From NCBI RefSeq assembly GCF_056746865.1, contig NZ_CM163382.1: a DNA stretch of 64,000 nucleotides. One strand, 5' to 3'. Below the pieces are notes generated by a model, which was given only the letters and a program-made list of their open reading frames with translations, did not search any database and was not told the DNA's origin. Within the stretch, counting starts at the first letter, position 1. Every line of letters starts with the position of its first letter. Of this stretch, positions 1 to 26,890 are shown one piece after another. Both the position numbers and the translations under genes were made by a program.

Positions 1-1465
1 GAAAAACATGCACGCCCGATTACTGGAACATGCCAGTTTACTCTGGCAGCCTGAAACAACCGATGCCATTCGTGCAGCACATGAGGGGGTGATTGGACAG
101 ATACTGACCATGAATTTGCTCCGTATCCAGGCTTTCTGGAGCCACTATCGTTTTCGCCAGCAAAACGCACGCCTTAATGCGCTGCTCCACCAGCAATTAC
201 GTATGACCAGTGTCATCTCCAGCCTGCGACGTATGTTGCTCAACTGGCCCTCACCGCCATGTGCCACACGAGAAATTCTCGAACAGCTGCTGACGGCGCT
301 CGCCAGTTCGCAAACAGATGTTTACACCGTCGCACGTATTATCGCCCCGCTACGCCCGACCAACGTCGCCGACTACCGGCACGTCGCCTTCTGGCAGCGA
401 CTACGTTATTTTTGCCGCCTTTATCTGCAAAGTAGTCAGGAATTACATCGTCTGCAAAGCGGTGTGGATGATCATACCAGACTCCCACGGACATCCGGCC
501 TGGCTCGTCATACCGATAACGCCGAAGCTATGTGGAGCGGACTGCGTACATTTTGTACGTTGATGATGATTGGCGCATGGAGTATTGCTTCGCAATGGGA
601 TGCCGGTGCCAATGCATTAACGCTGGCAGCAATTAGCTGCGTACTCTACTCCGCCGTCGCAGCACCGTTTAAGTCGTTGTCACTACTGATGCGCACTCTG
701 GTGTTACTTTCGCTATTCAGCTTTGTGGTCAAATTTGGCCTGATGGTCCAGATTAGCGATCTGTGGCAATTTTTACTGTTTCTCTTTCCACTGCTGGCGA
801 CAATGCAGCTTCTTAAATTGCAGATGCCCAAATTTGCCGCACTGTGGGGGCAACTGATTGTTTTTATGGGTTCGTTTATCGCTGTCACTAATCCCCCGGT
901 GTATGATTTTGCTGATTTTCTTAACGATAATCTGGCAAAAATCGTTGGCGTTGCGCTGGCGTGGTTAGCGTTCGCCATTTTGCGTCCAGGGTCGGGTGCT
1001 CGTAAAAGCCGTCGTCATATTCGCGCGCTGCGCCGGGATTTTGTCGATCAGCTAAGCCGCCATCCAACACTGAGTGAAAGCGAATTTGAATCGCTCACTT
1101 ATCATCACGTCAGTCAGTTGAGTAACAGCCAGGATGCGCTGGCTCGCCGTTGGTTATTACGCTGGGGTGTAGTGCTGCTGAACTGTTCTCATGTTGTCTG
1201 GCAATTACGCGACTGGGAATCGCGTTCCGATCCGTTATCACGAGTACGGGATAACTGTATTTCACTGTTGCGCGGAGTGATGAGTGAGCGTGGCGTTCAG
1301 CAAAAATCACTGGCGGCCACACTTGAAGAATTACAGCGGATTTGCGACAGCCTTGCCCGCCATCATCAACCTGCCGCCCGCGAGCTGGCGGCAATTGTCT
1401 GGCGGCTGTACTGCTCGCTTTCGCAACTTGAGCAAGCACCACCGCAAGGTACGCTGGCCTCTTAA
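1..1465 (+). CDS. ydhK: C-terminal part (about 485 aa) of an AaeB/FUSC-family inner membrane efflux protein; the 5' end lies upstream of the window
   Basis: ORF 8..1465 is open to the window edge; hydrophobic membrane segments; matches the K-12 gene order ydhK then sodC on the opposite strand. Confidence 0.8.
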
Positions 1466-1987
1466 TTACTTAATCACACCACAGGCATAGCGTTCACCGC
1501 CACCGCCCAGCGGTTTAGGTTGATCGGACATATTATCGCCGCCAACGTGGACCATCAGCGCTTTGTCTTTGATTTCATCCAGTGATTTCAGACGAGGCGC
1601 GATGACGGCATCGGTAGCTTTGCCGTCATTATTGACGACCAGTGCAGGCAGATCGCCTAAATGCCCGGCACCTTCTGGGCCTTCATGTTTACCGGTATTT
1701 TGTGGATCAAGATGCCCGCCTGCGGATTCCGCGGCGCTGGCTTTGCCATCTTTGGTGGCTGGCTGGCAGCTTCCTTTGGCATGAATATGGAAGCCATGTT
1801 CACCGGGGGGTAATGCTTTCAGGTCGGGCGAAAACTCCAGACCTTTATCGGTTTCAGTAATGGTGACGCTACCAATTGACTGCCCAACCCCTTGCGACGT
1901 GACGAGGTTCATCTCGACTTTTTCACTGGCAGCTTGTGCGCCGGTCGCAACAACCAGCGCCAGAATGGCCAGACTAAAACGTTTCAT
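1466..1987 (-). CDS. sodC: Periplasmic Cu/Zn superoxide dismutase
   Basis: ORF 1466..2038; start chosen at internal ATG 1985-1987 (MKRFSLAILALVVATGAQA signal peptide) with GGAGGT RBS; Cu/Zn SOD motifs (GFHIHAKGSC, GGGGERYACGVI); 173 aa. Confidence 0.93.
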   Translation of the reverse strand: MKRFSLAILALVVATGAQAASEKVEMNLVTSQGVGQSIGSVTITETDKGLEFSPDLKALPPGEHGFHIHAKGSCQPATKDGKASAAESAGGHLDPQNTGKHEGPEGAGHLGDLPALVVNNDGKATDAVIAPRLKSLDEIKDKALMVHVGGDNMSDQPKPLGGGGERYACGVIK

Positions 1988-14620: not shown

Positions 14621-14785
14621 GCCTTATCTCCACCTCTTCGCGTCATTACGCGATATTCATTAAAGTGGCGAAAGCATGACAGCAATCACAAAAAAATGAA
14701 AATAACAAAAAGAGAAAACACTTTTGCCATTTTGCTAACAAACAGGAAGGAGATGCGAGGGAGAACGCGCTCCCTCGAGAGGAAA

Positions 14786-14875
14786 TCAGTGCAGCGCGGC
14801 AGTCAAACCCACGGCCACGATCAAACCGAGGACGATAATCGTTGTTACCAGTGAAAATTTAAGGTCGGTGCTCAT
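14786..14875 (-). CDS. ynhF: Small membrane protein (29 aa)
   Basis: Hand translation of the minus strand gives MSTDLKFSLVTTIIVLGLIVAVGLTAALH with a stop; not in the ORF track because it is short; sits where K-12 ynhF lies between ydhP and purR. Confidence 0.7.
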   Translation of the reverse strand: MSTDLKFSLVTTIIVLGLIVAVGLTAALH

Positions 14876-15113
14876 CAAGTTTTCTCCTTTTTTATTACCA
14901 CACAAAAAGTGATATTACGCATTTTTACACACTGTGATGAAAAAATCTCCCGTCATTTATAATGATAAGTGTTTTTACCACTTCCCCTTTTCGTCAAGAT
15001 CGGCCAAAATTCCACGCTTACACTATTTGCGTACTGGCCATTGACCCCTTCCTGACGCTCCGTGTCGTTTTTCCGGCGTACCGCAACACTTTTGTTGTGC
15101 GTAAGGTGTGTAA

Positions 15114-15129
15114 AGGCAAACGTTTACCT
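15114..15129. promoter_or_regulatory. PUR box (PurR operator) in the purR leader, consistent with autoregulation
   Basis: AGGCAAACGTTTACCT, a 16-bp near-palindrome matching the PurR consensus ACGCAAACGTTTTCNT, 45 bp upstream of the purR ATG. Confidence 0.55.
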
Positions 15130-15173
15130 TGCGATTTTGCAGGAGCTGAAGTTAGGGTCTGGAGTGAAATGGA

Positions 15174-16199
15174 ATGGCAACAATAAAAGATGTAGCGAAA
15201 CGAGCAAACGTTTCCACTACAACTGTGTCACACGTGATCAACAAAACACGTTTCGTCGCTGAAGAAACGCGCAACGCCGTGTGGGCAGCGATCAAAGAAT
15301 TACACTACTCCCCTAGCGCGGTGGCGCGTAGTCTGAAGGTTAACCACACCAAGTCTATCGGTTTGCTGGCGACCAGCAGCGAAGCGGCCTATTTTGCCGA
15401 GATCATTGAAGCGGTTGAAAAAAATTGCTTCCAGAAAGGTTACACCCTGATTCTGGGCAATGCGTGGAACAATCTTGAGAAACAGCGGGCTTATCTGTCG
15501 ATGATGGCGCAAAAACGCGTCGATGGTCTGCTGGTGATGTGTTCTGAGTACCCAGAGCCGTTGCTGGCGATGCTGGAAGAGTATCGCCATATCCCAATGG
15601 TGGTGATGGACTGGGGTGAAGCAAAAGCTGACTTCACCGATGCGGTCATTGATAACGCGTTCGAAGGCGGCTACATGGCCGGGCGTTATCTGATTGAACG
15701 CGGTCACCGCGAAATCGGCGTTATCCCTGGCCCGCTGGAACGTAACACCGGCGCAGGCCGCCTTGCCGGTTTTATGAAGGCGATGGAAGAAGCGATGATC
15801 AAGGTGCCGGAAAGCTGGATTGTGCAGGGTGACTTTGAACCCGAATCTGGTTATCGCGCCATGCAGCAAATCCTGTCGCAGCCGCATCGCCCTACTGCCG
15901 TCTTCTGTGGTGGCGATATCATGGCAATGGGCGCACTTTGTGCTGCTGATGAAATGGGTCTGCGTGTCCCGCAGGATGTTTCGCTGATCGGGTATGATAA
16001 CGTGCGCAACGCCCGCTATTTTACGCCGGCGCTGACCACGATCCATCAGCCAAAAGATTCGCTGGGCGAAACGGCGTTCAACATGCTGTTGGATCGTATC
16101 GTCAATAAACGCGAAGAACCGCAATCCATTGAAGTGCATCCGCGGTTGATTGAACGCCGCTCCGTGGCTGACGGCCCGTTCCGCGACTATCGTCGTTAA
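15174..16199 (+). CDS. purR: Purine repressor PurR (LacI family)
   Basis: 341-aa [27 protein letters not shown]... with LacI-type HTH. Confidence 0.97.
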
Positions 16200-17128
16200 T
16201 CACCCGTTGCGGGAGTCTCTTCCGGCTCCCGCAGCCACTCCTTATTCAGCGTCTCACTATCGCCGAGATACTCAAGCAACCAGGTTAACGCAGGCGACAT
16301 ATCATTTTGCTGCCATGTCAGACAACATGCCGAATCCGGGAAGGGGTTTTCCAGTTCTAGTGCTACCCACTTACCCTCATTAAGCCACGGTTTGGCGAAA
16401 TGTGTTGGCACCATCCCTATGCATAATCCTGCCGAGATACAGGTTGCCGATGATTCCCAGTCAGGCACGACAAGTCTTTTTTGGTTATCCAGCAACCAGG
16501 TAATACGTTTAGGTAGCGTTCGCGAGGTGTCTTCGCGCACCAACGACGGCCAGTTGCGCAACGTATCATCGCTGAACGGGCCATCCATCAACGCCAGCGG
16601 GTGGTGACTGGCAACAACGCAACTCCAGCTTAGCATCCCCATATCCCGGAAGGCATAACGACCGCCTACCGGAATCGCGCGTGTTGCGCCAATCGCCAGT
16701 TCCACGCGCCCGTCGGAAAGCGCATCCCAGACACCGTTGAACACTTCCTGAAAGACAAGAAGTTCGACATCATCAAAATGGCGATAAAAATCAACGATCA
16801 TCTGCCGTGTACGTTCTGGCCTGACAATATTATCCACTGCGATAGCTAACTGACCGCGCCAGCCGTTCGCTATCTGCTGACATTGCTGCCGGGTGATCTG
16901 CATTTTTTTGACAACAGAGCGCCCTTCTTTGAGAAACCACGCCCCGGCAGCGGTCAGTTCCACATCACGGTGACGTCGTTCAAACAGCGGCACCGCCAGC
17001 CACTCTTCCAGCTGACGCACGGTATAGCTGACCGCAGAAGGAACGCGATGCAACTCCTGTGCCGCAGCGCTAAAACTACCATTACGCGCTACCGCATCAA
17101 CAACTTCGAGTGAATATTCTGACCACAT
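16196..17128 (-). CDS. punR: LysR-family transcriptional regulator (PunR/YdhB)
   Basis: 310-aa ORF with N-terminal LysR HTH; divergent from punC. Confidence 0.9.
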
Positions 17129-17240: not shown

Positions 17241-18452
17241 ATGCAACCTGGGAAAAGATTTTTAGTCTGGCTGGCGGGTTTGAGCGTACTCGGTTTTCTG
17301 GCAACCGATATGTATCTGCCTGCTTTCGCCGCCATACAGGCCGACCTGCAAACGCCTGCGTCTGCTGTCAGTGCCAGCCTTAGTCTGTTCCTTGCCGGTT
17401 TTGCCGCAGCCCAGCTTCTGTGGGGGCCGCTCTCCGACCGTTATGGTCGTAAACCGGTATTATTAATCGGCCTGACAATTTTTGCGTTAGGTAGTCTGGG
17501 GATGCTGTGGGTAGAAAACGCCGCTACGCTGCTGGTATTGCGTTTTGTACAGGCTGTGGGTGTCTGCGCCGCGGCGGTTATCTGGCAAGCGTTAGTGACG
17601 GATTATTATCCTTCACAGAAAGTTAACCGTATTTTTGCGACCATCATGCCGCTGGTGGGTCTATCTCCGGCACTGGCTCCTCTGTTAGGAAGCTGGCTGC
17701 TGGTCCATTTTTCCTGGCAGGCGATTTTCGCCACCCTGTTTGCCATTACCGTGGTGCTGATTCTGCCTATTTTCTGGCTCAAACCCACGACGAAGGCCCG
17801 TAACAATAGTCAGGATGGTCTGACCTTTACCGACCTGCTACGTTCTAAAACCTATCGCGGCAACGTGCTGATATATGCGGCCTGTTCAGCCAGTTTTTTT
17901 GCATGGCTGACCGGCTCACCGTTCATCCTTAGTGAAATGGGCTACAGCCCGGCAGTTATTGGTTTAAGTTATGTCCCGCAAACTATCGCGTTTCTGATTG
18001 GTGGTTATGGCTGTCGCGCCGCACTGCAGAAATGGCAAGGCAAGCAGTTATTACCGTGGTTGCTGGTACTGTTTGCTGTCAGCGTCATTGCGACCTGGGC
18101 TGCGGGCTTCATTAGCCATGTGTCGCTAGTCGAAATCCTGATCCCATTCTGTGTGATGGCGATTGCCAATGGCGCGATCTACCCGATTGTTGTCGCCCAG
18201 GCGCTGCGTCCCTTCCCACATGCAACTGGTCGCGCCGCAGCGTTGCAGAACACTCTACAACTGGGTCTGTGCTTCCTCGCAAGTCTGGTAGTTTCCTGGC
18301 TTATCAGTATCAGCACGCCATTGCTCACCACCACCAGCGTGATGTTATCAACAGTAGTGCTGGTTGCTCTGGGTTACATGATGCAACGTTGTGAAGAAGT
18401 AGACTGCCAGAATCATGGCAATGCCGAAGTCGCTCATAGCGAATCACACTGA
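17241..18452 (+). CDS. punC: MFS transporter (purine nucleoside exporter PunC/YdhC)
   Basis: 403-aa ORF, Bcr/CflA-like MFS. Confidence 0.9.
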
Positions 18453-24461: not shown

Positions 24462-26066
24462 ATGAAAAAAATTGCTATTGTGGGTGCCGGGCCTACGGGG
24501 ATCTACACCTTATTCTCGCTTCTACAGCAACAAACTCCACTTTCTATTTCTATCTTCGAGCAGGCTGATGAAGCCGGTGTCGGGATGCCATACAGTGATG
24601 AGGAAAACTCAAAAATGATGCTGGCAAATATTGCCAGTATTGAAATACCGCCGATTTATTGTACGTATCTCGAATGGCTACAAAAGCAAGAAGCCAGCCA
24701 TCTCCAGCGTTATGGCGTTAAAAAAGAAACCTTGCACGATCGTCAGTTTTTACCGCGAATTCTGCTGGGCGAATATTTCCGCGATCAATTTTTACGATTA
24801 GTAGACCAGGCACGACAGCAAAAATTTGCAGTGGCTGTTTATGAATCATGCCAGGTTACCGATCTGCAAATTATAAATGCTGGCGTCATGCTCGCTACAA
24901 ATCAGGATTTACCCAGCGAGACGTTTGATTTAGCAGTGATCGCGACGGGTCACGTCTGGCCTGATGAAGAAGAAGCAACCAGAACGTATTTTCCCAGCCC
25001 GTGGTCAGGCCTGATGGAAGCAAAGGTCGATGCGTGTAACGTGGGTATTATGGGAACATCCTTGAGCGGACTAGATGCGGCAATGGCAGTGGCTATTCAG
25101 CATGGTTCGTTCATTGAAGATGATAAACAACACGTCATTTTTCACCGCGATAACGCAAGTGAAAAGCTAAATATTACGTTAATGTCGCGCACGGGTATTT
25201 TACCCGAAGCCGATTTCTATTGCCCTATTCCCTACGAGCCCTTACACATCGTCACTGATCAGGCATTAAATGCTGAGATTCAAAAAGGCGAAGAGGGCCT
25301 TTTGGATCGGGTATTTAGATTGATAGTAGAGGAAATCAAGTTTGCTGATCCAGACTGGAGCCAACGCATAGCCTTAGAGAGCCTGAATGTTGATTCCTTT
25401 GCTCAAGCCTGGTTTGCCGAGCGCAAACAACGCGACCCATTTGACTGGGCAGAAAAAAATCTCCAGGAAGTCGAACGCAATAAACGAGAAAAACATACTG
25501 TTCCCTGGCGTTATGTCATTCTGCGCCTGCATGAAGCCGTACAGGAAATTGTTCCTCATCTGAATGAACACGACCATAAACGGTTCAGTAAAGGCCTTGC
25601 CAGGGTTTTCATCGATAATTATGCGGCAATCCCTTCAGAGTCTATTCGTCGCCTACTTGCCTTACGTGAAGCGGGAATCATTCATATTCTCGCCCTCGGT
25701 GAAGACTACAAAATGGAAATTAATGAGTCGCGCACCGTCCTGAAAACGGAAGACAACAGCTACTCGTTTGACGTTTTTATTGATGCCCGCGGACAGCGTC
25801 CGCTTAAAGTGAAAGATATTCCTTTCCCTGGACTACGCGAACAATTACAGAAAACAGGGGATGAAATCCCTGATGTTGGCGAAGATTATACGTTACAGCA
25901 ACCCGAAGATATTCGTGGACGCGTAGCGTTCGGCGCGTTGCCCTGGTTGATGCACGACCAGCCTTTCGTTCAGGGACTTACGGCATGTGCAGAAATTGGT
26001 GAGGCGATGGCTCGGGCGGTCGTAAAGCCTGCATCCCGTGCTCGTCGGCGTCTTTCGTTTGATTAA
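24462..26066 (+). CDS. ydhS: FAD/NAD(P)-binding protein
   Basis: 534-aa ORF with N-terminal Rossmann motif IAIVGAGPTG. Confidence 0.88.
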   Translation: MKKIAIVGAGPTGIYTLFSLLQQQTPLSISIFEQADEAGVGMPYSDEENSKMMLANIASIEIPPIYCTYLEWLQKQEASHLQRYGVKKETLHDRQFLPRILLGEYFRDQFLRLVDQARQQKFAVAVYESCQVTDLQIINAGVMLATNQDLPSETFDLAVIATGHVWPDEEEATRTYFPSPWSGLMEAKVDACNVGIMGTSLSGLDAAMAVAIQHGSFIEDDKQHVIFHRDNASEKLNITLMSRTGILPEADFYCPIPYEPLHIVTDQALNAEIQKGEEGLLDRVFRLIVEEIKFADPDWSQRIALESLNVDSFAQAWFAERKQRDPFDWAEKNLQEVERNKREKHTVPWRYVILRLHEAVQEIVPHLNEHDHKRFSKGLARVFIDNYAAIPSESIRRLLALREAGIIHILALGEDYKMEINESRTVLKTEDNSYSFDVFIDARGQRPLKVKDIPFPGLREQLQKTGDEIPDVGEDYTLQQPEDIRGRVAFGALPWLMHDQPFVQGLTACAEIGEAMARAVVKPASRARRRLSFD

Positions 26067-26077
26067 AGGTAAAGCTA

Positions 26078-26890
26078 TCAGCACTCAACAAACTGATGCT
26101 GTTCATTAAGACGATAGCGGACTCCGGTTCGAATATTGTTTTCACCTTCAATGGCGACGGCGAAGCGAACTCTTTCGCCGTCATGATATGCCAGTGCGGC
26201 GCTTCCCCCTGGCCCGAGAATAATTGAGTCGACCACGCCCGTGCTCACTACCGTTGAATTTTCACCGCTGGCAATGATGTGTACATTGTCGCCGCTGTTG
26301 GCAATTCTGGCGTTTGCGCCAAAGCTGGCGATTTGCACCAGGTCACCATTACTGGCGACATGACATCGTTCACCCAATGTACAAACGCGTACTCGCATTC
26401 CAGTATTCGCAATCCGACTACTATCTCCAGCGCTGCTTATCCGCGAAGAATTACCGGTTACAGCAACCCGTGCGCGTTCACCGGAGCTGCCAATGTGACT
26501 GTTAAAGCCGACACTTCCAATCCGCACGCTATAACCCATACTGGCAATTTGCGCGGCATACCCAGCGGTTGCGATTCTGGCATTATCCTCACAACAGCCG
26601 ATGCGAGCGTGATCGTCGCTGCGGGCAAACTGACTGCAAAATGCTCTCTCTCCGGGATCTGTGGCCAGTTTTTGCATAGAAGAAACTTCCTGATGCGCGA
26701 AGTTTTCATCCGCCAGCCATTTTTTCCACGCATACTCAACCAGACTCTCCGCCCAGTCCGTATATCCTTCCTCAATCAGTGCATGATGAATATCGGCATA
26801 ACTACCGCCGCGTGGGAAATGGCGCAGGAACCAGCGATACATCACCGCTCCGATACGCCATTCTCGCAGGCCTGCTCGTGTAATGATCAT
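26078..26890 (-). CDS. ydhT: Uncharacterised protein, last gene of the ydhYVWXUT operon
   Basis: 270-aa ORF, recognised as YdhT. Confidence 0.85.
   Translation of the reverse strand: MIITRAGLREWRIGAVMYRWFLRHFPRGGSYADIHHALIEEGYTDWAESLVEYAWKKWLADENFAHQEVSSMQKLATDPGERAFCSQFARSDDHARIGCCEDNARIATAGYAAQIASMGYSVRIGSVGFNSHIGSSGERARVAVTGNSSRISSAGDSSRIANTGMRVRVCTLGERCHVASNGDLVQIASFGANARIANSGDNVHIIASGENSTVVSTGVVDSIILGPGGSAALAYHDGERVRFAVAIEGENNIRTGVRYRLNEQHQFVEC

Follow-up and report, generated by a model that had tools for sequence, protein, structure and literature searches.

Among overlapping convergent genes, the modal class is that in which the two stop codons share a tetranucleotide (TTAA, CTAA, TTAG or CTAG); Lillo & Krakauer (2007, Biol Direct 2:22) counted 58 overlaps between convergent genes in Escherichia coli. 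Members of this class consist of two real genes on opposite strands, and the overlap is created when mutation of a stop codon lets the frame continue to the next stop; any terminator then falls within the coding sequence of the partner. Two other types of described system concern the ends of the transcripts themselves. Dar & Sorek (2018, NAR 46:6797) describe 3' ends that are defined by a stem-loop in transcripts without a U-tract, and bidirectional terminators (Ju et al. 2019; Wang et al. 2022) feature a boundary hairpin that is unlike an intrinsic terminator and a uniform 3' end. The convergent purR and punR (ydhB) genes, analyzed here in a window of 64,000 nt of E. coli DNA, resemble each of these systems in part. 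As a gene arrangement, the locus is an ordinary member of the class of Lillo & Krakauer: the overlap arises in the same manner, the hairpin lies within the coding sequence of the partner, and there is no essential difference other than a history that can be read directly from its relatives. The real feature of the locus is its well-conserved boundary hairpin.

Table 1. Features of the purR/punR locus. Positions refer to the 64,000-nt window, except in the last two rows, which give MG1655 coordinates.
Feature	Position	Strand	Description	Basis
PurR box AGGCAAACGTTTACCT	15114..15129	+	upstream of the purR start codon	pattern search, at most 3 mismatches
purR CDS	15174..16199	+	341 aa, LacI-family purine repressor; stop TAA at 16197-16199	ORF list, RefSeq, NCBIfam
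Tetranucleotide TTAA	16196..16199	.	common to both stop codons, 4-bp tail-to-tail overlap	sequence
punR (ydhB) CDS	16196..17128	-	310 aa, LysR-family activator of punC	ORF list, RefSeq, NCBIfam
PunR residues 301-310	16199..16228	-	tail lying beyond the family profile, not conserved	profile ends at residue 300
Boundary hairpin	16206..16235	.	5' arm 16206-16217; loop 16218-16223 (6 nt); 3' arm 16224-16235	
purR mRNA 3' end	16237..16238	+	MG1655 1738907 and 1738908	Adams et al. 2021 Term-seq, supplementary file 1
punC (ydhC)	17241..18452	+	PunR-activated transporter gene, transcribed divergently from punR	annotation, NCBIfam PunC equivalog, Rodionova et al. 2021
MG1655 purR (b1658)	1737844..1738869			RefSeq annotation
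MG1655 punR (b1659)	1738866..1739798			RefSeq annotation

Two genuine genes on opposite strands meet at the junction. The purR product matches the NCBIfam PurR equivalog over its full length (711 bits against a cutoff of 501), and the punR product matches the PunR equivalog with 529 bits (cutoff 345) across residues 1-300 only. The first-pass annotation had proposed that the stop codons of both genes overlap in TTAA, and this is borne out by the sequence, the ORF list, the RefSeq annotation and the equivalog matches. The letters of the junction (...cgtcgTTAAtcacc...) are T16196, T16197, A16198 and A16199; positions 16191-16205 read CGT CGT TAA TCA CCC, with CGT as the last purR codon, and the punR stop appears as TTA on the plus strand at 16196-16198, to be read as TAA on the minus strand from 16198 down to 16196. 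The 2.4-kb purR/punR region is 100% identical to that of strain 118UI, and of 5426 complete E. coli genomes 5423 carry it with at least 95% identity. An identical 4-bp overlap is annotated by RefSeq in both 118UI and MG1655; the overlap is hence already in public annotation, just as the 3' end of purR is already in published Term-seq tables. The mechanical ORF list contains also a stop-free frame of 279 aa antisense to purR (window 15300-16139, minus strand), which is putative only.

The overlap is no more than what is expected from chance and codon logic. Wherever a TAA stop follows a pyrimidine, as in the CGT TAA of purR, one of the three frames of the opposite strand automatically contains a TAA or TAG stop. 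Close packing of convergent genes is also seen elsewhere in the window, where the gaps of the ten convergent pairs are 0, 50, 145, -4, 39, 40, 11, 63, 42 and 56 bp, with three of the ten pairs lying at most 11 bp apart. The biological weight of this particular instance is small, as it is one among dozens of short convergent overlaps in E. coli.

A scan with one genome per species identified 80 loci encoding PunR relatives, 78 of which contain both genes, and the punR stops of these relatives were counted in frame from the start codon. In all 78 Enterobacteriaceae species representatives purR and punR are convergent neighbours and PurR is 341 aa long, a context (purR-punR-punC) whose conservation had already been noted by Rodionova et al. 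(2021). The spacing of the two stops, on the other hand, varies. A stop-to-stop distance of -4 bp, associated with a PunR of 310 aa, is found in 27 of the 78 species (22 with TTAA and 5 with CTAA), whereas 45 present a gap of +14 to +22 bp and a PunR of 303 aa ending in ...EWLREPE*; the gap is +1 to +5 bp in five species and +45 bp in one, and none of the 78 representatives has a punR that reads into purR. The overlap is thus a minority state, and it is the tight packing of purR and punR that stays constant. The occurrence of the overlap in only 27 of 78 species, with a spacer in the others, argues that the overlap itself is not under selection. The sole species with the 45-bp spacer, Enterobacter sp. 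kpr-6 (locus L036), carries an extra hairpin (GGCCTGCGG-TTTTACG-CTGCAGGCC) between purR and the usual boundary hairpin.

Comparison of the two main forms suggests how the overlap came about. The stop of the 303-aa forms sits 21 nt upstream of the extended punR stop (45/78), and in these species it falls within the loop of the boundary hairpin (35/45) or at the edge between loop and stem (10/45). In E. coli, the place of that stop is taken by PunR codon 304, a GAG (16217-16219) that is one base away from TAG, and the extension past codon 303 comprises seven codons (ETPATGD). It seems plausible, then, that in the Escherichia/Citrobacter/Salmonella group, along with a small number of other relatives, a punR stop located in the hairpin region was turned into a sense codon (GAG in E. 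coli), and that translation would since have run through the other arm of the hairpin and the spacer, seven codons in all, to the next in-frame stop. This new stop would be the reverse complement of the pyrimidine plus TAA that ends purR, and the seven added residues would be a mere translation of hairpin arm and spacer. The PunR tail would be neutral, and the family profile, which ends at residue 300, is consistent with its lack of conservation. The purR/punR locus can thus be described as a tightly packed convergent pair that would be bounded by a conserved GC-rich hairpin, and not by TTAA, and in which the shared tetranucleotide probably arose passively, as the punR stop drifted across a structural element. 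So viewed, it would provide a clean example of the origin of an overlap: a stop in the loop is lost and the frame crosses the second arm to reach the mirrored stop of the neighbour.

The hairpin on which this explanation hinges begins 7 nt after the purR stop and lies wholly within the last punR codons. Its stem has 12 bp, including two G.U pairs on the purR-sense strand. In E. coli, the plus-strand RNA folds with -23.2 kcal/mol (z = -6.6) and the minus-strand RNA with -17.1 kcal/mol (z = -1.6), the punR-sense fold being weaker because the two G.U pairs become A.C mismatches. A strand-neutral search recovered an equivalent hairpin in all 77 relatives scored, at 5-13 nt past the purR stop and with stems of 7-13 bp. 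The stem itself is far from constant in sequence: 31 different inner-stem versions occur among the 77 relatives (e.g. GGGAGCC/GGCTCCC, GTGCCGG/CCGGCAC, GACACCC/GGGTGTC and AACGCTC/GGGCGTT), and the 5' arm pairs at 6.94 of 7 positions with its own 3' arm, as opposed to 3.93 of 7 with the arms of other species. Across 69 distinct hairpins, 638 pairs are Watson-Crick, 39 are wobble and 2 are mismatched. A covariance model was built from 12 in-register sequences; at strict thresholds it missed the Escherichia/Citrobacter hairpins, and the resulting alignment hence contains 33 sequences. In this alignment 95.4% of the cells are paired, compared with 86% after shuffling and at most 50% when the partner column is slid, and double compensatory changes affect six of the ten pairs, values that none of 500 shuffles attained; these figures are indicative and are not to be read as probabilities, since the 33 sequences are related and their alignment is fitted to the structure. 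The hairpin is a conserved RNA secondary-structure element whose pairs are kept by compensatory substitutions.

Plain alignment with MAFFT followed by RNAalifold recovered almost no structure at the junction, a failure attributable to a shift of 1-2 nt in the position of the stem against the coding frame from one clade to another, and no Rfam family matches the junction (16100-16300) at E <= 1. Tight convergent junctions do not carry such hairpins as a rule. Two others in the window, those of ydhK/sodC (0-bp gap, TAATTA, window 1463-1468) and ydhS/ydhT (11 bp apart, window 26066-26078), show no hairpin folding better than shuffled sequence (z of -0.9 to +1.9), which argues that the element at purR/punR is not generic to this type of arrangement.

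The distribution of wobble pairs gives some indication of the molecule on which the hairpin acts. In the set of 69 distinct hairpins, 36 G.U pairs are formed on the purR-sense strand and 3 on the punR-sense strand, a count drawn from related sequences that may represent some ten independent events, and this near-exclusive placement suggests that the purR RNA is the selected molecule. A general advantage in stability for the purR-sense fold was considered and rejected, the mean energies over the 78 species being -20.8 and -20.5 kcal/mol (Wilcoxon p = 0.58). The purR-sense strand is therefore favoured only by the wobble asymmetry and by the E. coli sequence itself, and with equal mean stability on both strands the hairpin may have a role on the punR RNA too.

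The hairpin marks the end of the purR message. At least two entries in the Term-seq tables of Adams et al. (2021), classified as 'primary purR / antisense ydhB', place the 3' end of purR inside punR, at 2-3 nt past the stem and 38-39 nt past the purR stop; our coordinate conversion was checked against their 61-mers, which carry the 3' end at position 51. The mapping of transcript ends envisaged by the first-pass annotation is thus already published for the purR side. Its accompanying claim, that the two convergent mRNAs must overlap at their 3' ends, holds as a matter of logic and is documented on the purR side; the punR side finds no counterpart, as the Adams et al. (2021) supplementary tables list neither a punR 3' end nor a Rho termination region near 1738500-1739099, and neither a punR 3' end nor Rho data for the junction could be located in the supplements of SMRT-Cappable-seq and TERMITe.

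A strong GC-rich stem-loop that lies shortly after a stop codon and closely precedes a mapped 3' end is also what a canonical intrinsic (Rho-independent) terminator of purR would look like. Such a terminator, however, should be followed by a U-tract, and there is no T-run after the stem on either strand (plus strand CACUCCUUAUUC, minus strand AACGGGUGAUUAAC). The mapped end, moreover, lies too close to the stem, and not 7-9 nt into a U-run. A consensus terminator scan called seven sites in all against 5.2 expected, none of them at the junction; the two that fall within purR on the minus strand (16123-16110 and 16070-16058) do not exceed chance expectation. The lack of a U-tract and of any called site argues that the hairpin is not a canonical intrinsic terminator in spite of its GC-rich stem-loop, and we regard this reading as extremely improbable.

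Rho-dependent transcripts are reportedly trimmed back to a protective hairpin, and the end of purR has the corresponding layout. It lies where a stable stem-loop ends, with no U-tract following, and the plus strand downstream of the stem shows a skew of C over G that is compatible with Rho loading. A steady-state end at the stem base, lacking a U-tract and followed by C-rich untranslated RNA, fits trimming to a protective hairpin after termination farther downstream. In these respects purR resembles the ends described by Dar & Sorek; it differs from them in that Adams et al. (2021) report no Rho region nearby and in that its hairpin forms part of the opposing gene's coding sequence. We propose that the hairpin would act mainly at the RNA level and on the purR message, where it would define the 3' end of the mRNA and probably protect it. 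The polymerase would read on into the untranslated C-rich sequence antisense to punR and terminate there, by Rho or otherwise, and 3' exonucleases would then trim the purR RNA back to the stem. A contribution of the hairpin to pausing or termination in both directions is possible within this scheme. Taken as a whole, the combination of a hairpin-bounded pair, a punR stop that has drifted and a purR end at a protective hairpin constitutes the likely explanation of the locus.

Several of the same observations might be accommodated by a bidirectional terminator, in which a hairpin without a U-tract pauses polymerases arriving from both sides and these are released by head-on and trailing collisions. 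The hairpin is located exactly at the ends of a convergent pair, it lacks a U-tract, across species it folds with near-equal stability on either strand, and just beyond the stem the purR 3' end is sharp; the model, including its requirement for a hairpin, has been described in a preprint (Wang et al. 2022). The mechanism, however, needs frequent converging polymerases and, according to that work, operates best for highly expressed genes, and punR expression appears to be low, judging from the undetected punR 3' end and from a baseMean of 38 for punC as against 521 for purR. With punR weakly expressed, polymerase collisions at this junction should be rare. An end situated 2-3 nt from the stem base resembles the product of exonuclease trimming more closely, the wobble asymmetry favours one strand, and, as opposed to the described bidirectional terminators, just one of the two 3' ends is mapped at purR/punR. 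For these reasons we consider a bidirectional terminator unlikely.

The first-pass annotation had also suggested that the overlap might couple the purine repressor and the regulator of punC through antisense or transcriptional interference, and this part of it found no support. Under such coupling, pairing of the two mRNAs (e.g. as an RNase III target) or interference between polymerases would leave the levels of both regulators reciprocally linked. The transcripts do overlap, with purR RNA reaching 38 nt into punR; both genes act in purine metabolism and are adjacent in all 78 species, and the expression of punC is inversely correlated with the PurR regulon (Rodionova et al. 2021). The inverse correlation is nonetheless explained in the same study by the action of PunR and Nac at the punC promoter, and no PurR box was found near punR/punC in the 64-kb window with up to three mismatches. 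The overlap, furthermore, is missing in 51 of the 78 species. Because the purR 3' end falls right behind a strong covarying hairpin, the stable purR RNA spans only some 42 nt of the punR ORF, comprising the punR stop and the non-conserved last 10 codons. The reciprocal expression effects that coupling should bring about are absent from published RNA-seq data, which are weak evidence in that they cover one condition each for adenosine and for deletion of punR. With adenosine, purR decreases 2.6-fold (log2 -1.37, baseMean 521) and punC increases (log2 +1.58, baseMean 38), but punR does not feature in the list of differentially expressed genes; in the punR deletion, punC alone changes. Weak expression of punR, for which no Term-seq 3' end was detected, points in the same direction, and we deem coupling through the 3' overlap very improbable. 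A related reading, in which the covarying hairpin is a selected two-way insulator or 3'-end module shared by both genes and the tight packing permits a duplex of 30-40 bp between the purR and punR messages, or polymerase collisions, that would link PurR and PunR output upon induction of punR by adenosine or nitrogen limitation, strikes us as quite improbable.

The arrangement has practical consequences for the construction of punR alleles. C-terminal tags and deletions of punR would touch the stop codon of purR and its 3' hairpin, and the phenotypes ascribed to punR alleles could hence include effects on purR. The Keio deletion design keeps the last 21 nt of the target gene, and a Keio-type deletion of punR would thus take away the loop of the hairpin at the end of the purR mRNA together with its 3' arm. 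A C-terminal tag inserted before the punR stop would split the TAA of purR, and the published PunR ChIP-exo strain carries a punR tagged C-terminally with 8xmyc. The ChIP-exo table of that study lists purR and ydhB among the nearest genes of PunR peaks, an observation that might be connected.

The first-pass annotation had described the punC product as an exporter of purine nucleosides, which is doubtful. By sequence, PunC does belong with the efflux transporters, scoring 492 bits against the model of the Bcr/CflA efflux MFS subfamily, but experiment identifies it as a transporter for purine nucleoside uptake (Rodionova et al. 2021). Given this disparity between an efflux subfamily and a reported uptake function, the direction of PunC transport may merit a direct test.

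At the other end of purR, the PurR-box match upstream of the gene is the only one in the 64-kb window, against 0.65 expected by chance, and we take it to be purR's own autoregulatory operator. Adams et al. (2021) report two further plus-strand 3' ends at window positions of about 15163 and 15282 (MG1655 1737833 and 1737952), the first of them 11 nt before the start codon of purR and the second 108 nt into the gene. Both might reflect premature termini within the autoregulated leader and the beginning of the coding sequence, and they bear no Rho-dependent flag in supplementary file 3 of the same work. The Rfam family STnc550 (RF02081, 396 bits) matches the minus strand at 14783-15173, covering cydH/ynhF and its leader. 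As this match ends one base before the purR ATG (15174), the corresponding RNA would be antisense to the 5' leader of purR, PurR box included. In the Term-seq data the ynhF 3' end has 655,382 reads as against about 1,500 for that of purR, and the read count indicates that, of the two antisense neighbours of purR, the one at the 5' end greatly exceeds the 3' one in abundance.
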